Below are positions 28,395 through 62,615 of a DNA stretch of 64,000 nt, piece after piece. Under the pieces are notes generated by a model that did not search any database, was not told where the DNA came from, and worked only from the letters and a program-made list of their open reading frames with translations. The translations under genes were made by a program, and so were the position numbers. Origin of the DNA: an uncultured Solirubrobacterales bacterium (GTDB taxonomy: Bacteria > Actinomycetota > Thermoleophilia > Solirubrobacterales > Solirubrobacteraceae). Each line of letters starts with the position of its first letter. Position 1 is the stretch's first letter. The stretch is from positions 483,919-547,918 of the forward strand of contig CAWAIB010000005.1 of the NCBI GenBank assembly GCA_963782025.1, given 5' to 3'.

Positions 28395-28511
28395 CCCAAC
28401 TTAGAGCGGCCATAAGACATTGCAAAGTCGTCGTTAAGAGGTGGACCGTAGCCTCGCTGAGTGTCGTTGAGGCGCGATGTCAGACAACCAAACTGAGGAG
28501 GAGGCCGGCGC

Positions 28512-29482
28512 ATGGCTACGCAAGGGGTGCTTGGGGCGGCGACGTTGAAGGAGTTCGAGGACGGGTTGCACGGAGAGCTGATCCGGCCCGGCGATGGCGT
28601 TTATGACGAGGCTCGTGCGATCTGGAACGGCGCCCATGACGCTCGCCCGGCGGTGATCGCCCGCTGCGCTGATTCCTCCGACGTGCGCCACGCGATCGGT
28701 TTCGCGCGCAGCGAGGGACTTGACGTCGCGGTGCGTGGCGGCAGCCACAGCATCCGGGCGACCGCGCCGAGGAGATCATGCGCTTCTACCGGGAGTTCAC
28801 GCGTGAGGTGCCGGATGAGCTGAGCACCCTGGTCAACCTGATCACCGGGCCACCCGCTCCGTTCATTCCTGAGGACTGGCACGGCAAGAAGCTGATCGCC
28901 CTCGTCGGCTGCTACTCCGGTGACCCCGAGGAGGGGATGAAGGTGATGCAGCCGCTCCGCGACCTGGGCGACGCGGTCGCGGACCTTGTCAGCCCGATGC
29001 CCTACGTGCAGATGGAGAGCCTGCTCGATGCGCTCTGGCCGAAGGGCACCCAGGCCTACATGAAGGCGGGCTACTTCCGCGAGCTCGACGATCACGCGAT
29101 CGAGACGATGGCCCGCTTCCATCAGAACGCGACCTCCCCGGCCTCGGAGATCCACATCCAGCAGTTCGGCGGCGCGATCGCCCGTGTCGGTGAGGAGGAG
29201 ACCGCCTGCGGGGAACGCCAGGCGCCGTTCGTGCTCAACGCGATCGCCGCCACCCATGAGCCGACCGGCCTGGAGACCCATATGGATTGGGCGCAGCGGC
29301 TCTATGCCGAGATCGAGCCGTCGCTGACCGGTGGCGCCTACATCAACTTCCTCTCCTCCGAGGGCGAGGATCGGGTCAAGGCGGCCTACGGGACCGAGAA
29401 GTTCGCCCGGTTGCGGGCGCTCAAGGACCGCTACGACCCCACCAACCTGTTCCACCTGAACCAGAACATCCCACCATCATGA
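28512..29482 (+). pseudogene. BBE-type FAD-binding oxidase with 427-nt internal deletion (copy of 51088..52485)
   Basis: Nearly identical to 51088..52485 at both ends. The junction near 28751-28757 (CACAGCAT/CCGGGCGACC) removes the equivalent of about 51330-51756 and shifts the frame. The track shows two ORFs, 28512..28823 and 28778..29482. Confidence 0.9.
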
Positions 29483-31300: not shown

Positions 31301-31454
31301 CGCGCCCAGAACGGTACGCGCGAGTTGTGACGGCAGAGTGGATTAGGTGCCCGCCCACCCCGCGAGACTGTCGCGAGAAGTCCAGCTTGCGGATCTAATT
31401 ACCAGTAACGACTCGTGTGTCCGTGTCTGCCAACACGCCTTGGGACTTCTTTCG

Positions 31455-31625
31455 AGCTCAACCCAGGCAAGCAATCCCGGGTCTTTCGTCTCTCGGCCAA
31501 TAAGGCCGCGAAGCGGTATTGGCCGAGAGACGAAAGACCCGGGATTGCGTAGCCGGGGAGGGAAGACCCGGGATTGCGTAGCCGGGGAGGGAAGACCCGG
31601 GATTGCGTAGCCGGGGGACGAAGAG
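31455..31625. repeat. type-1 hairpin element with 29-bp-period arm reiteration
   Basis: L-arm 31476-31502, R-arm 31517-31543 (perfect, T:A variant). Units ATTGCGTAGCCGGGGAGGGAAGACCCGGG at 31544 and 31573, partial unit from 31602. Abuts the stop codon (31630) of the surface-protein gene. Confidence 0.92.
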
Positions 31626-31629
31626 CGTC

Positions 31630-34112
31630 TCAGTACTTCACGTGCGCTTCGGCTTCGGTGTAGGAGGTGCCTTCTTCGACCTTGAGCTTCAGGATGGCTT
31701 CGCTCGTGCCGGACGCGGGGCTCGTGTATTCGAAGACGCCTGAGGATTCGGCGAGGCCGGAGGCGGGGATCGCGAGGCCGGTAGCGTTCGTGAGCGTGCC
31801 TTCGCCGCTCGTCTTTTCGACCTTCGCCTTGTGGGCGCCGCCGAGGTTGGAGACGATGTTGCCGTATGCGTCGGTGACGCTGGCGTGGGCTTTGAATTTC
31901 TTGCTGGCGCCGATGCTGGTCGTGATGCAGGCAAAGGGGCAGGTGCCTGCTTCGAGTTTGCCGGCGCTCACCGTGGCGCCTGACCAGGCAAAGCGTTCCG
32001 GCGCGCCAGCCCTGATCGTGAACGAGCCCGACGTGCCTGTCACGGTGGCTGCCTTCTTTGACTTTGAGGGTCGTGTTCTGGGCGTCAAAGAGCTTGATCA
32101 GAGAGGCTGTGCCCACGCCTTCGGTGAAGGTGACCGTCGTGGCCGTGGTCGGGTATTCGGGCGCGAGGCCGCCGGGCGAGCTGGCGGGTTCGCTGAAGGC
32201 GAGTGTCCTTGAGCCCGCATAGCCGGCCGTGATGTTGCCCCATTCGTCGGTGGCGGTGAGCGTGATGTTGAAGGGGGCGCCCGCTTCCTGTTCTGAGGGT
32301 GTTGGCACGGTGAGCTTTTTGGTCGCGGCTGCTTTGACCGTGAAGGAGCCCGTGACGCCTTCGATCGTCCCTTCCGTCGCCTTCAGTGTCGTGTTTTGGG
32401 CGTCGTAGAGTTTGATCGTCGAGGCCGTGCCCACGCCGGAGGCGAAGGTGACGGTCGCCGGGTAGCTGGGCGGTTGTCCGCTGGGCGAGTTTGAGGGTCC
32501 GCTCCAGGTGAGCGTCTTTGCGCCCGTGTAGCTCTTGGCGGTGTTGCCCCATTCGTCGATCGCGGTGGCTTTCACGCTGACGGCGGTGGTGCCCGCTGTC
32601 GCTTCGGCCGGCGTCGTCATGCTGAAGCTGTTGGCGGCGGCCGCCTTGACGGTGAACGAGCCCGAGGCGCCTTCGATGCTGCCTTCTTTCGCTTTGAGCG
32701 TGGTGCTCGCGGCGTCGTAGAGCTTGAGCGAGGAGGCCGTGCCCACGCCCGCGGTGAAGGTGACCGTCGTCGCCGAGGCAGGGTATTCGGGCGCTGTGCT
32801 GATGGGCGAGGGCGAGCTCGCCGGCCCGCTCCAGGCGAGCGTCTTTGCGCCGGCGTAGCTGGTCGCGGTGTTGGAGTATTCGTCGAGGGCGGTGAGCGTC
32901 ACGTTGAAGGGGGCGCCCGCTTCCTGTTCGGACGGCGTTGGCACAGTGAATTTCTTGGCGACGGCCGGTTTGACGGTGAAGCTGCCCGACGTTCCTTCAA
33001 TTGCTGTCGTGCTTTCCTTTGCTTTCAGCGTCGTGGTCTGGGCGTCGTACAGCTTGGTCGAGGCAGCCGCGCCGGCGCCGGCGGTGAAGGTGACCGATGC
33101 CGTGTAGCTGGGCGCTTTTCCACTGGGCGAGTTGGCGGGTTCGCTCCAGGTGATCGTCTTTTTGCCCGCATAGCTCGTGGCGGTGTTGCCGTATTCGTCG
33201 GTGGCGGTGAGCGTCACGTTGAAGGGGGCGCCCGCTTCCTGTTCTGAGGGTGTCGGCACGCTGAGCTTCTTCGCCGCGGCCGCTTTGACCGTCACCGCCA
33301 GTCCGGTGGAGTTGTTGAGCGAGCCTTCCTTGACCTTGATGTGCGCGGCTTCGGCCTTGTACAGGGTCATCACGCCGTTGATCGCGCTCGACACCGTGGA
33401 TTTGCCTTCGCTGAACGTGATTTCGGTTGCTTCGCCAAAGCTCCTTTCGACGCCTGAATTGTCAACCACAAGCGGTTCTTCGCCGGCCGCTTCGTTGGCG
33501 CCTTCAAAGATCAGGGAATGCGAACCCGAGTAGGTCCCGACCGTGTCGCCCGACGCGTCCTTGGCGGTGATTGTGAGGTTGTCGGTCGCGCCGGCGGTGG
33601 GCGTGGTGTTTGCGGCTTCGAGCACGAGGTGGGTCGCCGGGCCATAGGCAACCGTCACCGATTTGGCTGTGCTTGTCGCCGTCCAAGTGCGCCAGACCGC
33701 GGTGACCGTGTATTCGTGGGCGCCGATCGACAAGCCCGTGTCGGTGCAGCTCGTGGCGGTCGAGGGAGAGCCCGAGCTCGGGCAGCCGCCGCCGGGGGAG
33801 CCGGCGTCGCGAGTCAGCGAAGTATTCGACCGTGCCGCCGCCGGGTGGCGTGACGGCCGACCAGGTGAGTTCGACCGTTTGGGCGCCCGGCGTGGCACTC
33901 GAGATCGCGGGCGAGGAGAGCGTCGCCAGGCTCGCCGACGCGTTTATTGTGCCGGCGCCCGACCAGTAACCAAAGACGCCCGCGACCAGCAGGCTCAGCG
34001 TCATCACGGTAGTGACCGCGATCCGCCGGGGCCTGCTGTGGCGGTTCGATCGCCTGGGCCTGCTGCGACGATTCGGTCTTCTCATGAGTGCGCGCTTGGT
34101 ATCGCGGGCCAC
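31630..34112 (-). pseudogene. large cell-surface protein with about six tandem Ig-like (Big_1-type) repeats, interrupted by two +1 frame disruptions
   Basis: Three track ORFs join into one protein: 33504..34112 (signal anchor IAVTTVMTLSLLVAGVFGYWSGAG, TVEYF), 31343..33898 (LTRDAGSPGGGCPSS..., then ~100-aa repeats VPTPSEQEAGAPFNVTLTATDEYGNTATSYAG...KLYDAQTTTLKAKE) and 31630..32088 (ATVTGTSGSFTIRAG...EAEAHVKY*). Frame breaks near 33815-33825 and 32047-32056. Confidence 0.75.
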
Positions 34113-35668: not shown

Positions 35669-36095
35669 CCGGGCCTTGATCTCGGCCAGGAACTGCGGGT
35701 AGTCGGCGGACAGCGCGTCGCTCCGGCGTAAGGGTGCAGAACAAGTAATCGAACATATGTTTGTATATGGCCAGGACGGAACGAGGCTACTCCAGGCGTC
35801 TGGCCCGTCTTCACGGCCGCTGATCCGGGCCCAACCAAGGCAAGCAGAGTCCGGGTCTTTCGTCTCCCGGCCAATAAGTCCGCGAAGCGGTATTGGCCGG
35901 GAGACGAAAGACCCGGATCTGCGCCGGGGGGAGCTGTGAAAATCTCTTTGTGAATTTAAGGATGTGTTTTTGGGCCAGCATTCGCGCAGGAAGGTGAAAC
36001 CTCCAATGGAAGTGGGCGCGGAGCGTCCTGCTCCGCGTACAGGGGTTGCTTAGCCACGGTAGATGTGTGGCTTTAGCCCTGGCTGGCTTGTACAA
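35669..36095. repeat. composite module L1: yhcG 5' fragment, SOS-like box, conserved 85-nt spacer, type-1 hairpin, D module
   Basis: 35669-35748 encodes (minus strand) ...SDALSADYPQFLAEIKAR with ATT in place of ATG. Hairpin arms 35850-35876 and 35891-35917. D module 35931-36095 with hairpin CGCGGAGC-GTCCT-GCTCCGCG at 36017-36037. Confidence 0.85.
35750..35763. promoter_or_regulatory. SOS-box-like site with one mismatch (CGAACATATGTTTG)
   Basis: 13/14 match to CGAACATATGTTCG, in the same module position as the perfect copies. Confidence 0.45.
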
Positions 36096-37748: not shown

Positions 37749-38165
37749 CTGAGCGGGGTTTTTTGGGTCGCATCCGTGCAGAACAAGTAATCGAACATAT
37801 GTTCGCATATGGCCAGGACGGAACGAGGCTAGTCCAGGCGTCTGGCCCGTCTTCACGGCCGCTGATCCGGGCCCAACCAAGGCAAGCAGAGTCCGGGTCT
37901 TTCGTCTCTCGGCCAATAGGTCCGCGAAGCGGTATTGGCCGAGACGAAGACCCGGATCGAAGACCCGGGATCTGCGCCGGGGGATGAAAGACCCGGGATC
38001 TGCGACGGGGAGGGAAGACCCGGGATCTGCGACGGCGGGAGCTGCGAAAATCTCTTTGTAAATGGAGGATGTGTTTTTGGAGGATGTGTTTTTGGGCCAG
38101 CATTCGCGCAGGAAGGTGAAACCTCCAAAGGAAGTGGGCGCGGAGCCTCCTGCTCCGCGTCAAGG
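37749..38165. repeat. composite module L2: short yhcG start remnant, perfect SOS box, spacer, type-1 hairpin with three R-arm ends, D module
   Basis: Hairpin L-arm 37892-37918, R-arm 37933-37956 (with small deletions). R-arm ends finish at 37976, 38004 and 38031. D module 38037-38165 has an internal duplication GGAGGATGTGTTTTT x2. Confidence 0.85.
37792..37805. promoter_or_regulatory. perfect LexA/SOS-box palindrome CGAACATATGTTCG
   Basis: Exact 14-bp palindrome flanked by T on the left (TCGAAC). Matches the Gram-positive/actinobacterial LexA operator consensus CGAAC-N4-GTTCG. Confidence 0.65.
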
Positions 38166-40589: not shown

Positions 40590-41025
40590 CACGAGAGTCA
40601 TCGAACATATGTTCGCATATGGCCAGGACGGAACGAGGCTAGTCCAGGCGTCTGGCCCGTCTTCACGGCCCGCTGATCCGAGCTCAACCAAGGCAAGCAG
40701 AGTCCGGGCCTTTCGTCTCTCGGCCAATAAGTCCGCGAAGCGGTATTGGCCGAGAGACGAAAGACCCGGGATCTGCGACGGGAGGAAGCCCCGGGATCTG
40801 CGCCGAGGCGGCGCTCGCCTATGGCGTGCGAGTGGTGTGTCTGTGTGCCGGAAGAGCCTGTGCAGGAAATCGGCTACGGGGGGTGTGTTTTGGCAGTTAT
40901 GAAGGCCGTCTTGATGAGCGTCAAAACCATGCCGACCCCACGCCTGAGGGCGCGCGGGAGGTGTGTCTCCAAGACCAGGTGGTCGTGGTGATGGCCTGTG
41001 CCGGTACGCAAGGCGGACAACGCGA
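40590..41025. repeat. composite module L3: SOS box, spacer, type-1 hairpin, E module, partial F module, type-2 spacer remnant
   Basis: Hairpin arms 40703-40729 and 40744-40770, extra R-arm end to 40802. E module 40803-40866, F module 40867-40950. GTGGTGATGGCCTGTGCCGGTACGCAAGGCGG at 40985-41016 matches the 64-bp type-2 spacer. Confidence 0.85.
40602..40615. promoter_or_regulatory. perfect LexA/SOS-box palindrome CGAACATATGTTCG
   Basis: Exact copy of the 37792-37805 site. On the minus strand it is followed by ATG (40601..40599), then unrelated sequence and the AbiEi gene. Confidence 0.65.
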
Positions 41026-50695: not shown

Positions 50696-50985
50696 GTAGT
50701 TTTCCTGATCAAGCTGCTCGCTCTGGAGTCCGAGCGCCGCCTCCACGTCGAGCAGGCGGCCGAGCTGCTGTGGGCGGGGCGGGACCCGGACTCCGCCCGC
50801 AACAACCTGCATCAGGCGATCTTCGCGGCCCGGCGCGCGCTCGACTCGATCGGGCTGGACGGCAGCCGCTACCTGGAGCTGCGCGAAGAACTGATCCTGC
50901 TCAGCCCCGAGGACCCGGTCCGGATCGACGCCGTCGCCTTCGAACAGCTCGCCGCCGCGGCGCGCAAGCAGGGCGAGCCCGGCGG
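50696..50985 (+). pseudogene. N-terminal fragment of a SARP/BTAD regulator (diverged paralog of 25065..28394)
   Basis: LIKLLALESERRLHVEQAAELLWAGRDPDSARNNLHQAIFAARRALDSIGLDG...PEDPVRIDAVAFEQ aligns with residues ~40-130 of the 25065 protein. It then joins directly to the sequence found downstream of that gene (GCGGCCATAAGACATTGC). Confidence 0.75.
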
Positions 50986-51087
50986 CCATAAGACATTGCA
51001 AAGTCGTCGTTAAGAGGTGGACCGTAGCCTCGCTGAGTGTCGTTGAGGCGCGATGTCAGACAACCAAACTGAGGAGGAGGCCGGCGC

Positions 51088-52485
51088 ATGGCTACGCAAG
51101 GGGTGCTTGGGGCGGCGACGTTGAAGGAGTTCGAGGACGGGTTGCACGGAGAGCTGATCCGGCCCGGCGATGGCGTTTATGACGAGGCTCGTGCGATCTG
51201 GAACGGCGCCCATGACGCTCGCCCGGCGGTGATCGCCCGCTGCGCCGATTCCTCCGACGTGCGCCACGCGATCGGTTTCGCGCGCAGCGAGGGACTTGAC
51301 GTCGCGGTGCGTGGCGGCAGTCACAGCATTCCCGGCTTCTCGACGGTCGATGACGGCATCGTTATCGACCTCTCGCCGATGAAGGGCGTCACGGTGGATG
51401 TGGCCGCTCGCACCGCCAGGGCCGAGGGTGGCGTCACCTGGGGGGAGTTCGACGCCGTCACCCAGGAGCACGGCCTTGCCACCACCGGGGGCCTGGTCTC
51501 GACCACCGGCGTCGCCGGCTTCACGTTGGGCGGCGGGATCGGCTGGCTGATGCGCAAGCATGGTCTGGCCTGCGACAACCTGCGCTCGGCCGAGGTCATC
51601 ACCGCCGACGGGCAGATCCTGACCGCGAGCGCGACGGAGAACCCCGATCTCTTCTGGGGCCTGCGCGGCGGCGGAGGTAATTTCGGCGTCGTCACCTCCT
51701 TCGAGTTCGACCTGCACCCGGTTGGCCCGACCGTGGCCGCCGGCCCGGTCTGGTATCCGGGCGACCGCGCCGTGGAGATCATGCGTTTCTACCGGGAGTT
51801 CACGCGTGAGGTGCCGGATGAGCTGAGCACCCTGGTCAACCTGATCACCGGGCCACCCGCTCCGTTCATTCCTGAGGACTGGCACGGCAAGAAGCTGATC
51901 GCCCTCGTCGGCTGCTACTCCGGTGACCCCGAGGAGGGGATGAAGGTGCTGCAGCCGCTCCGCGACCTGGGTGACGCGGTCGCGGACCTGGTCAGCCCGA
52001 TGCCCTACGTGCAGATGGAGAGCCTGCTCGATGCGCTCTGGCCGAAGGGCACCCAGGCCTACATGAAGGCGGGCTACTTCCGCGAGCTCGACGATCACGC
52101 GATCGAGACGATGGCCCGCTTCCATCAGAACGCGACGTCCCCGGCCTCGGAGATCCACATCCAGCAGTTCGGTGGCGCGATCGCCCGTGTCGGCGAGGAG
52201 GAGACTGCCCAGGGCGAGCGCCAGGCGCCGTTCGTGCTCAACGCGATCGCCGCCACCCATGAGCCGACCGGCCTGGAGACCCACATCGATTGGGCGCAGC
52301 GGCTCTATGCCGAGATCGAGCCGTCGCTGACCGGTGGCGCCTACATCAACTTCCTCTCCTCCGAGGGCGAGGATCGGGTCAAGGCGGCCTACGGGACCGA
52401 GAAGTTCGCCCGCCTCCGAGCGCTCAAGGACCGCTACGACCCCACCAACCTGTTCCACCTGAACCAGAACATCCCACCATCATGA
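51088..52485 (+). CDS. FAD-binding oxidoreductase (BBE-type), intact copy
   Basis: 465-aa ORF. DVAVRGGSHSIPG, LRGGGGNFGVVTSF, YDPTNLFHLNQNI. GAGGAGGAGG upstream of the start. Confidence 0.9.
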   Translation: MATQGVLGAATLKEFEDGLHGELIRPGDGVYDEARAIWNGAHDARPAVIARCADSSDVRHAIGFARSEGLDVAVRGGSHSIPGFSTVDDGIVIDLSPMKGVTVDVAARTARAEGGVTWGEFDAVTQEHGLATTGGLVSTTGVAGFTLGGGIGWLMRKHGLACDNLRSAEVITADGQILTASATENPDLFWGLRGGGGNFGVVTSFEFDLHPVGPTVAAGPVWYPGDRAVEIMRFYREFTREVPDELSTLVNLITGPPAPFIPEDWHGKKLIALVGCYSGDPEEGMKVLQPLRDLGDAVADLVSPMPYVQMESLLDALWPKGTQAYMKAGYFRELDDHAIETMARFHQNATSPASEIHIQQFGGAIARVGEEETAQGERQAPFVLNAIAATHEPTGLETHIDWAQRLYAEIEPSLTGGAYINFLSSEGEDRVKAAYGTEKFARLRALKDRYDPTNLFHLNQNIPPS

Positions 52486-58208: not shown

Positions 58209-58490
58209 AGGCTAGTCCAGGCGTCTGGCCCGTCTTCACGGCCGCTGATCCGGGCTCAACCAACGCAAGCAATCCCGGGCCTTTCGTCTCTCGGCCAATA
58301 AGTCCGCGAAGCGGTATTGGCCGAGAGACGAAAGACCCGGGATCTGCGACAGGGAGGGAAGACCCGGGATCTGCGCCGGCGGAAGCAGTGAAATCTCTTT
58401 GTGAATTGAGGATGTGTTTTGGGTCGCATCCGCGCAGGTAACCGAGACCTCCAGAGGGAGTGGGCGCGGGGCCTCCATGCCCCGCGTCGG
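58209..58490. repeat. composite module L4: partial spacer, type-1 hairpin plus one R-arm end, D module (no SOS box)
   Basis: Hairpin arms 58274-58300 and 58315-58341, extra R-arm end to 58375. D module 58381-58490 with the compensated hairpin variant CGCGGGGC-CTCCAT-GCCCCGCG at 58465-58486. Confidence 0.85.
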
Positions 58491-58580
58491 ATGCGATGGC
58501 AGTACGCCGGCTATCCACGCGCTCGCAACCTCGCAGAGAACAGTCGCCTGTTGGCGAAATTGTCAACCTGAGTTGGCATA

Positions 58581-59768
58581 ATGGACAACATGGCTCGCCT
58601 GCGGTCCCGAGATCTGTTTCCCTCCGAGGAGCCCGTCCGTCCGCCTGGGAAGCTGATCGGCCGCCAGAGCGATGTCGAGGAGCTTGCTTCCCAGCTCACG
58701 AATGGGATCCACCGCATCCTCGCGGCGCCGCGGCGTACGGGGAAGAGCACGGTCTGCGAAGCGACGATTGCGACGCTTCGACGCAAACGGCTCTACACGG
58801 TGAGCGTCAGCCTGTTCAAGTACACCAACGCCGCTTCCCTTGCCGAGGCGCTCGCTCAGGAGACGCTCGCCAACCGTTCGGCGGTCAAGCGGCTGATCGA
58901 GCGTACGCGCAACCTCGGCTCGGGCGCGCTCAGCGGACGTTCGCTGACCGCGGTGCTGCGCGTGAAGTCCGAATTGGGCGAGGCGGTGGAGATCGCCCTC
59001 GAGCCGACGCGTAGACGCCGCGATCCATTGCAAGAGCTGGGCGTCGCTCTCGAATTGCCCCAGCGGATCGCCGAGCGCGACGACCGGCAGTTGATCCTGT
59101 TGATCGATGAGCTGCAGCAGCTGAACAGCGGCGCCTACGGTGACCCCGAGCAGATTACCCAGCGGCTGCGGGAGACACTTCATGCCTCCCCTCGCGTGAC
59201 TTGCCTGTTCGCGGGAAGCGTCGAGCATCTGATGCGCGATCTGTTCAGCAACCAGCACCGCGCGCTCTACCAGTTCGGTGGCTTCCACGAGCTCTCACGG
59301 ATCACCGAGGATGAGTGGCGCGCGGGACTCGGTGAGCGCTTCGCCCAGGACGAATGCACGGTCGACGAGGAGGCCCTGGAGCGCATCATTGCCTCGGGCG
59401 AAGGGCATCCGCGGTCGACGATGCTGATCGCCCAGCAGACACACCACGCCTCGGTCGAGGAGGGAACCCGCCACATCGACGGTACGCTCGCCGAGCGCGG
59501 CTACCGCGGCGCGTTGGCAGACGACGCGGGCCGTCACAGCGACCTGATGGACCGTATCCGGGCGATGGGCAACACCGCGGTCGATGTCACCATCCGCCTC
59601 GCACATCACCGCTCCCCATACACGGACCTGGAGAAAAAGGCAGTCAATCGTGCGCTGAACACACTCGCCGACACCTCAATCGTGATCAGGCCAAGCGGAC
59701 GAGGCTCCTGGACGTTGGCCGACCCCCTCTTCTCAGCCTACGTTCGCCGCGAGATCAACGACGGCTGA
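58581..59768 (+). CDS. AAA ATPase (Arch_ATPase/ORC-like) with C-terminal winged-helix-like region
   Basis: LIGRQSDVEELASQL, Walker A LAAPRRTGKSTV, Walker B LILLIDELQQL, sensor-like LFAGSVEHLM. Confidence 0.8.
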   Translation: MDNMARLRSRDLFPSEEPVRPPGKLIGRQSDVEELASQLTNGIHRILAAPRRTGKSTVCEATIATLRRKRLYTVSVSLFKYTNAASLAEALAQETLANRSAVKRLIERTRNLGSGALSGRSLTAVLRVKSELGEAVEIALEPTRRRRDPLQELGVALELPQRIAERDDRQLILLIDELQQLNSGAYGDPEQITQRLRETLHASPRVTCLFAGSVEHLMRDLFSNQHRALYQFGGFHELSRITEDEWRAGLGERFAQDECTVDEEALERIIASGEGHPRSTMLIAQQTHHASVEEGTRHIDGTLAERGYRGALADDAGRHSDLMDRIRAMGNTAVDVTIRLAHHRSPYTDLEKKAVNRALNTLADTSIVIRPSGRGSWTLADPLFSAYVRREINDG

Positions 59769-59928
59769 CGCCGCTAGAAACGACACGCCGGCCGGCTCCT
59801 TCCGCAGTCGCTGAGCGGGGTTTTTTGACCGATCAAAGATCGGCTCGCATCCGCGCATGTGCCTGGTGTTCCCGTTGTGGATGGGTGCAGGCTCTCCATG
59901 CCCCGGTACCAGGGCTTGCTTAGCCACG

Positions 59929-60130
59929 GCGGATCTCGGACATTCGTTTCGACCGAGAGGACCCGCCTCAGTGGGGCCGGTCGAAACGAATGTCCGAGAT
60001 CCGCTGTGGTGATGGCCTGCGCCTGGACGGCAAAGCGGGGCCGGTCGAAACGAATGTCCGAGATCCGCCGTGGTGATGGCCTGCGCCTGGACGGCAAAGC
60101 GGGGCCGGTCGAAACGAATGTCCGAGATCT
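59929..60130. repeat. type-2 hairpin element: perfect 27-bp stem followed by two more R-arm copies at 64-bp period
   Basis: L-arm GCGGATCTCGGACATTCGTTTCGACCG 59929-59955, 22-nt loop, R-arm 59978-60004. Further R-arm copies at 60042-60068 and 60106-60129. Confidence 0.92.
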
Positions 60131-60430
60131 TGCCCGGGCCCCCCACCCTGTGACCAACAAGTAACCATCTGTGAAGCCGGGCCTGAGATCGGCTACGGGG
60201 GGTGTGTTTTGGCAGTTATGAAGGCCGTCTTGATCAGCGTCAAAATCATGCCGACCCCACGCCAAGGGCGCGCCGGTGGCGCATGGTTCTGCCCATGCTC
60301 GCCTTCGCGACCGTCTTTGTGAATTGAGGATGTTGTGAATGGAGGATGTGTTTTTGGGCCAGCATCCGCGCAGGAAGGTGAAACCTCCAATGGAAGTGGG
60401 CGCGGAGCGTCCTGCTCCGCGTCATGGCGC
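60131..60430. repeat. F module followed by D module (shared with other loci)
   Basis: 60145-60310 is almost identical to 62445-62610 and partly to 40867-40950. 60311-60430 matches the D modules at 35931, 38037 and 58381. Confidence 0.85.
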
Positions 60431-60505: not shown

Positions 60506-61033
60506 CTATCGGGCGAGGGTGTCGAGGAACTCGTTGATTGCTGCGGCGGCGTCGGCGGCGAGGAGTTGCGCGTCGTCCTCGGGGGTGACCTTTCGTGCTT
60601 CGCGGGCGTAGGCTCGCGCGCCATGTGCGCGGTCGTTGCGAAATCGTTCGCGTATCTCCAGGAAGGTGGAGCTCATGCCCGGGAGTGCATCCGCGAGTGG
60701 GCTGGCCTTGACGATGTTGGCGGCTTCGGTTGGGCCACCGGCATCGTTGTGAAGTAAGACGTATGCGAGGTCGTAGTAATCCTTGTCGGCGCCGCGTGTG
60801 CGCACGGCCACGGACTTCGAGAGCAGGTAGCCGGCGAGTCCGGCGATCTGAACACGCAGATTGCCCTCGGGAACGTGAAGGATGTACTCGTGGTGGTCAC
60901 GCTCGACGTAGCCGGTGCCCCGGAGATTGACCGCTCGCAGCCTCGAGCACCCAACCGGTGAAACGATCGCCTCGGCCGGCTGGTTGTCGAGATCGCAGAG
61001 GAACTCGATCTTGACGATGCGATCGTTAGCCAC
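60506..61033 (-). CDS. N-terminally truncated nucleotidyltransferase toxin paralog (catalytic GG...DxD region absent)
   Basis: 175 aa aligning with the C-terminal ~170 aa of 57274..58089. Keeps the same 8-nt coupled start (GTGGCTAA vs GTGGCTGA), but roughly 95 N-terminal residues including the NTase motif are missing. Confidence 0.65.
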   Translation of the reverse strand: MANDRIVKIEFLCDLDNQPAEAIVSPVGCSRLRAVNLRGTGYVERDHHEYILHVPEGNLRVQIAGLAGYLLSKSVAVRTRGADKDYYDLAYVLLHNDAGGPTEAANIVKASPLADALPGMSSTFLEIRERFRNDRAHGARAYAREARKVTPEDDAQLLAADAAAAINEFLDTLAR

Positions 61034-62039
61034 GCTCTGATCCCATCACGTCGCGGAGATGTTGGGCGGCATCCTCTCCCCGGCCGCCAAGGCGTTTGAG
61101 GTCGGCGTAGACCCGTGGCCAGGAGACGAGGGGGCCAGACGGAGAAGGAGTCGTGAGGCTGAATGCGTTGCTTGGAGTGCGCCACAGCTCGATCCGGCCG
61201 GCGTCATCTGTGACGGTGAGGCCGGCGTCCCGTAGCCGCGGTGCGAGGTCGCGGTGCGCGTAGCGCTCATCGACCCGCAGGTGCAGGATCGGGAGCTGCG
61301 TGACGAATGGCGCGAGCTGCTGCGCGGCGGCCCACCCCGTCCAGCCGAACGCGACATCGCCGAGGACGTGCGTGAGGCGGGCCTGCAGGTCGTCGAGGTC
61401 GCGGCTGGTGGTGTGGGCAAACCACTTCTCTATGGGGCTGGTGTTGAGGTGCGCTGTCCAGGATGCGAGCATCGCCTCCGGGTGTTCCAGGACACGGTGC
61501 GCTCCGCGTCCTCGGGCAGGTCCCTGCTTCGCGGTCCAGCCTTCCTGGTCCCAGCCGGTGAGGATCCGGCTGGCTCGCGCGATCGAGCAGCCGGCGTGTT
61601 CAGCGATCCAGGCCGTCGTGATCTGTTCGGGGCGAGCGGCGAGGGTCGCCTCGGCGGCAAGGATCGCGATCTCACTCCAGGAGGCCCCACGCGGATTTGG
61701 ATCCTTTGGCGCGGGCGCGCGGTCGACGTGGACGAGCAGGCCGTCGCCCCGCAGATTCGCCGCGCCTGTCTCATCGACCCAGTTGATCGCCCGCTCGTCG
61801 AGCAGCCGCCGAGCGCCGGATGAGAGCTCAGGCGCGACTACGAGCGTCACAGCTGGGGAGCGCTCCAGCCGTGCACGGACCTCGGCCGGGGAGCCACGGC
61901 GAACCCACGCGGCGCTGAAGCGTGGCTGGCGAGGCAGCCCCACGACGCGCAGGGCATGCGCGCCGGCCGCGGACTGGACGAGAACGTCAGCATCGAGCAC
62001 GGTGCTGACGGCACGCGTCAACCGATCTTTCTCGTTCAT
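61026..62039 (-). CDS. AbiEi-like antitoxin-family protein (paralog of 56253..57281)
   Basis: 337-aa ORF with the shared C-terminal motif. TAGAAT (62051..62046, minus strand) lies 6 nt upstream of the ATG in an AT-rich 60-nt stretch. Confidence 0.65.
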   Translation of the reverse strand: MNEKDRLTRAVSTVLDADVLVQSAAGAHALRVVGLPRQPRFSAAWVRRGSPAEVRARLERSPAVTLVVAPELSSGARRLLDERAINWVDETGAANLRGDGLLVHVDRAPAPKDPNPRGASWSEIAILAAEATLAARPEQITTAWIAEHAGCSIARASRILTGWDQEGWTAKQGPARGRGAHRVLEHPEAMLASWTAHLNTSPIEKWFAHTTSRDLDDLQARLTHVLGDVAFGWTGWAAAQQLAPFVTQLPILHLRVDERYAHRDLAPRLRDAGLTVTDDAGRIELWRTPSNAFSLTTPSPSGPLVSWPRVYADLKRLGGRGEDAAQHLRDVMGSERG

Positions 62040-62097: not shown

Positions 62098-62615
62098 GGT
62101 CCGTGCAGCCCCGATCCGGGCCTTGATCTCGGCCAGGAACTGCGGGTAGTCGGCGGACAGCGCGTCGCTCCGGCGTAAGGGTGCAGAACAAGTCATCGAA
62201 CACATGTTTGTATGTGGCCAGGACGGAACGAGGCTACTCCAGGCGTCTGGCCCGCCTTCACGGCCGCTGATCAGGGCCCAACCAAGGCAAGCAGAGTCCG
62301 GGTCTTTCGTCTCTCGGCCAATAAGTCCGCGAAGCGGTATTGGCCGAGAGACGAAAGACCCGGGATCTGCGCCGAGGCGGCGCTCGCCTATGGCGTGCGA
62401 GTGGTGTGTCTGTGTGCCGGAAGAGCCTGTGCGGGAGACGCCCGCCTGTGACCAACAAGTAACCATCTGTGAAGCCGGGCCTGAGATCGGCTACGGGGTG
62501 TGTTTTGGCAGTTATGAAGGCCGTCTTGATGAGCGTCAAAATCATGCCGACCCCACGCCAAGGGCGCGCCGGTGGCGCATGGTTCTGCCCATGCTCGCCT
62601 TCGCGATCGTCCTCG
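62098..62615. repeat. composite module L6: yhcG 5' fragment (about 33 codons), SOS-like box, spacer, type-1 hairpin, E module, F module
   Basis: Minus strand 62196..62098 reads MTCSAPLRRSDALSADYPQFLAEIKARIGAAR... Hairpin arms 62297-62323 and 62338-62364. E module 62372-62440, F module 62441-62615. Confidence 0.85.
62197..62210. promoter_or_regulatory. SOS-box-like site (CGAACACATGTTTG)
   Basis: GAAC-N4-GTTT in the module position of the perfect boxes. One half-site mismatch. Confidence 0.4.

Follow-up and report, generated by a model that had tools for sequence, protein, structure and literature searches.

A reiterated palindrome as a likely member of a REP-like, genus-restricted hairpin family in an uncultured Solirubrobacterales bacterium

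On balance, we read the palindrome at 59924-60129 of the window as one copy of a genus-restricted family of palindromic intergenic repeats, a REP-like hairpin of gene 3' ends whose array of right arms is local and has no dedicated enzyme behind it. The window is the whole stretch of DNA that was analysed, 64,000 nucleotides long, and corresponds to C5:483919-547918 of a 2.81-Mb genome in 8 contigs with 67% G+C (91% complete). The family is previously undescribed, and it is REP-like with unusual copy-specific stems in which changes on one arm are compensated on the other. Here the palindrome itself is called type 2, and the more numerous hairpins of the surrounding region are called type 1. Positions without a contig prefix are those of the window.

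Structure of the palindrome and its surroundings

A preliminary description of this DNA had reported two arms perfectly complementary over 27 bp, two further copies of the right arm at 60042 and 60106, and a remnant of the 64-bp spacer near 40985. All three were borne out, with the third copy of the arm being only 24 nt long, and the features are as follows.

59924-59955, plus strand: left arm, 32 nt with its CCACG flank; the perfect 27-bp part is 59929-59955 (GCGGATCTCGGACATTCGTTTCGACCG)
59956-59977, plus strand: loop of 22 nt, with its own mini-hairpin CCCGC-CTCA-GTGGG at 59962-59975
59978-60004, plus strand: right arm copy 1 (CGGTCGAAACGAATGTCCGAGATCCGC), pairing with the left arm over 27 bp
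60005-60041, plus strand: spacer 1, 37 nt, with CCTGCGCC (resembling the family 3' terminus) and GGCAAAGCGGGGC (resembling the family apex)
60042-60073, plus strand: right arm copy 2, 32 nt, 100% complementary to 59924-59955
60074-60105, plus strand: spacer 2, the rest of the second 64-bp unit
60106-60129, plus strand: right arm copy 3, shortened to 24 nt; the array ends in GATC and is followed by the F module
40985-41017, plus strand: remnant of the spacer of the 64-bp unit, adjoining a type-1 module

The perfect stem spans 59929-60004 and measures 27 bp with copy 1, or 32 bp if the left arm takes copy 2. Over 32 nt the left arm is 97% complementary to copy 1 and fully complementary to copy 2, which is the better partner, and the minimum-energy fold of the whole array likewise pairs the left arm with copy 2. 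The array was reported by TRF at 59973-60129 with a period of 64, 2.5 copies and 98% matches. Each unit starts in the apex-like GGCAAAGCGGGGC, runs through the right arm and its terminus, and ends 14-17 nt past it in the stretch that contains CCTGCGCC; the model matches behind these likenesses to the family terminus and apex in spacer 1 are weak. Folded as RNA, the 95-nt type-2 element reaches -74.1 kcal/mol on the plus strand and -66.1 kcal/mol on the minus strand (z about -10.5), a value matched by none of 200 shuffles, and the 64-nt unit by itself is not significantly structured (z +1.3). For the spacer remnant at 40985-41017, 27 of 33 positions are identical, with one gap, and its local score of 39 compares with a shuffle maximum of 27. 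As the 64-bp period is not a multiple of three, a coding repeat was rejected, and the ORFs overlapping the array and the modules gave no Pfam match.

The palindrome sits between the convergent reading frames 58581-59768 (plus strand) and 60506-61033 (minus strand), in the following setting.

58581-59768, plus strand: AAA-type ATPase gene, converging on the hairpin from the left, with its stop codon 160 nt before the left arm
59842-59910, plus strand: diverged D-type module just upstream of the left arm, resembling C5:548158-548222, which follows the next ATPase gene
60147-60315, plus strand: F module, 97-98% identical with 62445-62611 and also with C5:549508-549675 and C5:554109-554242, both outside the window
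60311-60430, plus strand: D module, common to 35956-36043, 38078-38165 and 58404-58491
60506-61033 and 61026-62039, minus strand: two ORFs, converging on the hairpin from the right
62287-62375, plus strand: nearest type-1 hairpin, for comparison
16152, 24699, 30000, 31467, 35840, 37882, 40693 and 58265: window starts of the other type-1 hairpins

Given the diverged D module upstream of the left arm, the type-2 hairpin has D-type sequence on both sides; that module has GGCTCGCATCCGCGCA in common with 60357-60372. Neither of the two minus-strand ORFs has a Pfam or PADLOC match, and no promoter or regulated ORF is evident around the type-2 array. Right after the ATPase gene, 59795-59826 reads CCGCAGTCGCTGAGCGG and then GGTTTTTTG, a hairpin and T-run that form a candidate conventional terminator upstream of the type-2 hairpin.

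A family confined to one genus

Membership of type 2 in a wider family was established with covariance models. The first model, R1, followed a scan for long perfect hairpins. It recovered hairpins from several congeners, and other families of the order gave none. The second, R2, was made from 21 hairpins of other genomes only, with nothing from this genome, and it places the family in 10 of 40 species of one uncultured Solirubrobacterales genus, at about 5-20 loci each. In 38 other genera of the same taxonomic family, which served as a negative control, R2 gave no hits at E<=1e-4. Applied to this genome, R2 gives 54.8 bits for type 2 (E 2.5e-7 per genome), 37-53 bits for the type-1 copies, all below type 2, and 58-73 bits for the solitary hairpins at C4:26002, C3:671432, C3:1388809 and C3:1388954. 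As R2 finds both types and has no hits in the 38 other genera, the homology of type 1 and type 2 that had been proposed from the likeness of their right arms now has statistical support. The genome-wide search suggested at the same time located the type-2 arm at one further site, C5:549467-549490, 1.5 kb past the end of the window and nowhere else in the genome. With the perfect stem set to a minimum of 18 bp and the loop to a maximum of 40 nt, the entire genome contains only 17 hairpins, and 13 of them are of this family.

Family members are 80-95 nt long and have a constant order of parts, which from the 5' end is (ATCAG)CYAAGCRGGTCC, a copy-specific stem segment, CGACCG, an apical mini-hairpin, CGGTCG, the complementary segment and GGATCCYGCGC. 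The mini-hairpin is usually CCGCGAAGCGG, of the GCGNAGC type. The termini (AAGCRGGTCC and GGATCCYGCG) are conserved, and the middle of the stem differs in nearly every copy. In the family alignment and in the type-1 copies of the window, the 3' terminus nearly always reads GGATCC, with an extra A relative to the 5' GG-TCC, which gives a conserved one-base bulge near the base of the stem and a conserved GATC. The loop of type 2 is without the GCGNAGC or GCGNNAGC apex that is usual in the family.

Diverged solitary members, located by the hairpin scan and R1, stand on other contigs of this genome, as listed here.

C4:26007-26090: solitary member with a 35-bp stem
C3:671433-671522: solitary member with a 31-bp stem
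C3:1388809 and C3:1388954 (span C3:1388809-1389046): inverted pair of solitary members

These adjoin housekeeping genes; solitary members occupy housekeeping loci in other species too, and they are conserved at orthologous positions. The inverted pair consists of two canonical members in opposite orientation, 54 nt apart and BIME-like, and the right arm of its second member, CGGTCGAAAAATGAAGG, is close to that of type 2.

A derivation of type 2 from type 1 is unsupported. The type-2 arm is about 70-82% identical both to type 1 and to the solitary elements on other contigs, so roughly equidistant from the two, and pairwise arm identities do not place it nearer either. Type 2 is a sibling of type 1 within the family, not a demonstrated descendant. 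Its orientation is indicated in two opposite ways. R2 scores type 2 higher on the minus strand by 10 bits, and the loop of type 2 is similar to the one in the C4 element, whereas the apex-like motif in the repeated 64-bp units points to the plus orientation, the orientation that type 1 has by its apex, flank and bulge. If type 2 were minus-oriented, the reiterated arm would be a different intrinsic end in the two types, and on this the evidence is mixed.

Outside the genus-level searches, exact scans for the type-2 arm or hairpin found no copies in GTDB representative genomes or JGI metagenome contigs, and a search of 60 relatives allowing up to 3 mismatches gave two chance hits only, with no partner arm. 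A loose family pattern run over GTDB returned mostly chance matches, the model confirming 2 of 80 loci. Plasmid and phage collections yielded no match, nor did Rfam at gathering thresholds; a plant miRNA-precursor match in Rfam at E<1 was rejected as spurious (41 bits against a threshold of 268).

Concerted change of both arms

The claim that the two arms of these hairpins diverge in concert is upheld by the hairpins of relatives. Paired cells make up 92% of their alignment, a share that drops to 29-48% on sliding the partners, and 17 of 23 pairs change on both sides; in 500 shuffles the observed values were never reached. Direct comparison of loci gives the same picture. The orthologous loci L069 (genome G036) and L070 (genome G008), from different species, are separated by two fully compensated pairs and no other stem difference, and a paralogous pair within one genome differs by three compensated pairs and two uncompensated changes. 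L065 and L080, both in G008, are paralogous hairpin loci; their flanks match, as do those of L069 and L070, and their stems differ by compensated pairs.

Mismatches of the G.U and A.C kinds number 12 and 8, without strand bias, and neither strand of the family folds consistently better. As neither the mismatches nor the folds favour one strand, the constraint looks like one on a DNA palindrome or a two-strand hairpin, that is, at the DNA level or on both strands, and not like one on a single-strand RNA. Template switching between the arms of quasipalindromes both makes and repairs perfect stems (PMC7202029, PMC8794818). We infer that it probably keeps the arms of type 2 and of the family complementary, possibly together with selection; a change in one arm would be copied to the other by quasipalindrome correction, or pairing itself would be selected, or both. 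The preliminary description had suggested protein recognition of a folded structure, and mutational correction of the arms would explain the perfect stems equally well.

Local origin of the array in a variable island

The type-1 hairpins, about 16 in number, all lie within C5:500-568 kb and all have the same orientation. This 68-kb region is a variable island with ATPase genes and candidate defence genes, and the type-1 copies in it carry their flanking modules along. Two likenesses that had been drawn between the types do not hold. In type 1 the length of the perfect stem varies between 20 and 32 bp instead of equalling the 27 bp of type 2, and the 64-bp period belongs to type 2 only, the tails of type 1 having periods of 25-31 and 49 nt. 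The 49-nt units of type 1 likewise begin in the apex (GCGAAGCCGG) and continue through the right arm, and in the island the reiteration is on the right side every time.

The further site of the type-2 arm is part of a hybrid array at C5:549273-549490, which comprises a type-1 hairpin, a 49-nt tail unit, a junction, and one type-2 spacer with its right arm, followed by the F and D modules that are also at 60147-60430. The array lies 1.4-1.6 kb past the end of the window. The block of type-2 unit, F and D modules at C5:549412-549787 is 97% identical to the type-2 locus over 378 nt. The junction can be written GACGAAGCCC/GAGATCCGC or GACGAAGCCC/GAGATCCGCTGTGG and falls inside the homology of the arms. 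As it lies within a stretch common to both arm types, the two types are alike enough for recombination or a template switch between them.

Extra arm copies occur only in island types 1 and 2, and none of the 23 solitary members of this genome and its relatives has them. From this absence outside the island it follows that the shared architecture of arms and repeats reflects tandem duplication in one recombination-prone region and is not a trait of the family. The earlier argument that a preserved architecture implies function is weakened in the same measure: the hairpin is indeed kept across the family, but the reiteration of the arm is not. With units that stand head to tail in non-coding DNA, as in a minisatellite or VNTR, the 64-bp array is most simply a local minisatellite. 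It would have arisen by tandem duplication of the apex region, the right arm and the 14-17 nt beyond, probably through slippage or unequal recombination in the recombination-prone variable island, and the same block would also have been copied to a second locus at a distance of 5.5 kb. These steps would involve no dedicated transposase or recombinase.

Other repeats were seen in the same region. A 315-nt tandem repeat of 3.9 copies with 72% identity occupies 32048-33289, within the minus-strand ORF 31343-33898, and is probably a repeated protein domain. Two 300-nt stretches in 28406-29051 and 50982-52054 are 98-100% identical at a distance of 22.6-23 kb; the pair is a recent segmental duplication within the island. 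The modules upstream of type-1 hairpins at 35744-35818, 37786-37860, 40596-40670 and 62191-62265 carry TCGAACATATGTTCG, a perfect Gram-positive/actinobacterial LexA-box palindrome, and there is none at the type-2 locus.

Position at gene ends and a possible role

Where the flanking genes of the relatives' hairpins could be called, most of the hairpins follow a stop codon at a distance of 0-38 nt; several are between convergent genes, and some overlap the stop codon. A very stable hairpin would form in transcripts off either strand, or in unwound DNA, and at gene 3' ends it could serve as a barrier at the end of the transcript, or terminator, or as a protective hairpin, or be merely a tolerated palindrome. 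As the location at gene 3' ends is that of REP-like hairpins and of the mycobacterial terminator TRIT (PMC3384566), we favour a role as transcript-end barrier or protective hairpin, with which the placement of the family is consistent.

Several observations speak against such a role. Mycobacterial RNA polymerase is said to need a U-tract at intrinsic terminators. On reading of the sequence, the U-tract or T-run of a canonical intrinsic terminator is absent after either type-2 arm, and a scan with a terminator consensus listed no site at the type-2 hairpin. The upstream ATPase gene is, moreover, already provided with a hairpin-plus-T-run candidate at about 59800-59826, whose fold by itself is not significant. 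The conserved termini and the GCGNAGC apex exceed what a mere terminator would need, which hints at protein recognition or at a role in single-stranded DNA.

Alternative explanations

The last of these roles can be stated as a full alternative, in which the hairpins act when the DNA is unwound as single-stranded-DNA signals. The GCGNAGC mini-hairpin would nucleate them, and they might serve, for example, in priming or initiation or as the landing pad of a protein. GCGNAGC is an extraordinarily stable DNA mini-hairpin of phage G4 and of ssi (single-strand) origins (PMC13037366). Of 21 relatives, 15 have GCGNAGC or GCGNNAGC at the apex, always on one and the same strand of the element, where the background would be about 0.07 per 32 nt, and the motif is present in type 1 as well; pairing in the stems is perfectly Watson-Crick, and G.U wobbles are enriched on neither strand. 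However, the apex of type 2 itself is without the motif, there is no plasmid or phage link, and the location just after stop codons suits a role at the transcript level better. We therefore consider a single-stranded-DNA signal unlikely.

The arrangement of the island raises a different possibility, namely that the hairpins are attC-like recombination sites for the shuffling of cassettes without an integron, types 1 and 2 being alternative sites that bound defence-gene cassettes. About 16 co-oriented hairpins do punctuate the 68-kb island of ATPase and candidate defence genes, the canonical members combine a variable middle with conserved ends and have a bulge of one base close to the foot of the stem, and a hybrid junction of type 1 and type 2 exists. 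Nevertheless, no IntI (TIGR02249) was found above the cut-off, the best matches, on another contig and of XerC/D-type appearance, reaching 76 bits against 265, and the island and its immediate surroundings contain no tyrosine recombinase. RYYYAAC/GTTRRRY cores are lacking, with no GTTRRRY at or beyond the right arm in either type. Solitary members stand at housekeeping loci in conserved orthologous positions, and the long shared flanking modules are as expected from ordinary homologous recombination. Cassette shuffling of this kind is improbable on these grounds. We also give little credence to a further proposal, that the hairpins are GCGNAGC-nucleated single-stranded-DNA signals read by a hairpin-specific enzyme, the co-oriented hairpins, the arm arrays and the hybrid junction of the island being footprints of non-integron shuffling of defence cassettes.

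Type 2 could also be a switch or other structured regulatory RNA whose left arm selects among the three right arms and so controls the neighbouring genes. The left arm can indeed find a partner in each of them, over 27 bp in copy 1, 32 bp in copy 2 and 24 bp in copy 3, and copy 2 is taken in the minimum-energy fold. Such a switch is nonetheless very improbable, as the 64-nt unit is unstructured, all 23 solitary members checked are without the reiteration, Rfam offers no relative beyond the spurious sub-threshold match to a miRNA precursor, and neither a promoter nor a regulated ORF is evident.

Movement of a REP/REPIN-like element by a cognate RAYT (HUH Y1 transposase), one per repeat type, is largely refuted and now scarcely credible. 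The elements are palindromic, extragenic and repeated at gene 3' ends, and several sequence types occur in one genome, all of which would suit a RAYT system. The HUH/RAYT-like gene that the preliminary description had suggested looking for was not found, however: neither this genome, which is 91% complete, nor any of 8 congeners with the hairpins has a match to PF01797 (RAYT/Y1), which a control search detected in 6 reference genomes. There is no GTAG-type 5' motif, the middle of the stem varies from copy to copy, and copies number merely about 5-20 per genome. As the type-1 copies are confined to 68 kb and share their flanking modules, they point to segmental duplication and not to transposition. 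With regard to MITEs, the ends of the hairpins are inverted repeats, and 21 flanks show no target-site duplication; a scan for autonomous insertion sequences, with pairs of termini flanking an ORF, gave chance-level hits only.

A chance palindrome or assembly artefact, which could be argued from there being one complete type-2 hairpin anywhere and from the empty exact scans of GTDB representatives and JGI contigs, is refuted by the fold (z about -10.5), by the R2 E-value of 2.5e-7, and by the left arm with its flank recurring without differences in several independent soil metagenomes from different studies. A contig from one soil metagenome run, X1, joins 59857 to 60404 through 31 other letters that do not occur in this genome, and one of its sides is anchored by just 21 nt; it is probably another D-module locus from a different strain, or it may be a strain allele without the type-2/F block.

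Discussion

The reading we favour, that type 2 is a local, reiterated copy of a genus-restricted hairpin family, adds to what is known without overturning current ideas. What is new is a well-delimited palindromic repeat family of an uncultured soil actinobacterial genus, with an unusual combination of conserved ends and apex, compensated copy-specific stems and no RAYT. The family constitutes a clean natural data set on what keeps stems perfect, selection or template-switch correction, with L069/L070 and L065/L080 as useful material on the latter, and it could be a marker for strain typing. The type-2 array, in turn, shows such elements seeding minisatellites and recombination junctions in a defence island.

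Among known systems, REP/BIME elements and the REPINs of Enterobacteria and Pseudomonas are also extragenic palindromes at gene 3' ends, with stable hairpins that stand singly or in clusters and are limited to a lineage. The present family is likewise extragenic and mostly located at gene 3' ends, but a RAYT and the GTAG motif are both lacking, each genome has only about 5-20 copies, and in contrast to the conserved sequence of REP its mid-stem is hypervariable and compensated, with a conserved GCGNAGC apex. TRIT is a repeated and conserved hairpin terminator motif of Mycobacterium tuberculosis at well-defined mRNA 3' ends (PMC3384566). The two have in common a repeated conserved hairpin motif in an actinobacterium at mRNA or gene 3' ends, and TRIT's terminator activity has experimental support, whereas the role suggested for the present family comes from its position and the type-2 arms are without a U-tract.

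In BOX elements (boxA-boxB(n)-boxC) and MIRU-type minisatellites, which are also modular repeats between genes, one module recurs head to tail in variable number. The module reiterated in type 2 is one arm of a long perfect palindrome with its flank. Integron attC sites resemble the family in having conserved ends and a variable, largely self-complementary middle, in punctuating arrays of accessory genes and possibly in working as a folded single strand. They differ from it in that the family is without IntI and the R/L core consensus, has nearly perfect stems and also occurs singly at housekeeping loci. Quasipalindrome correction is a mutational mechanism and not an element family, and it is the patterns of the stems that suggest it here; it would explain both the perfect stems and the multi-base compensated changes (PMC7202029, PMC8794818).
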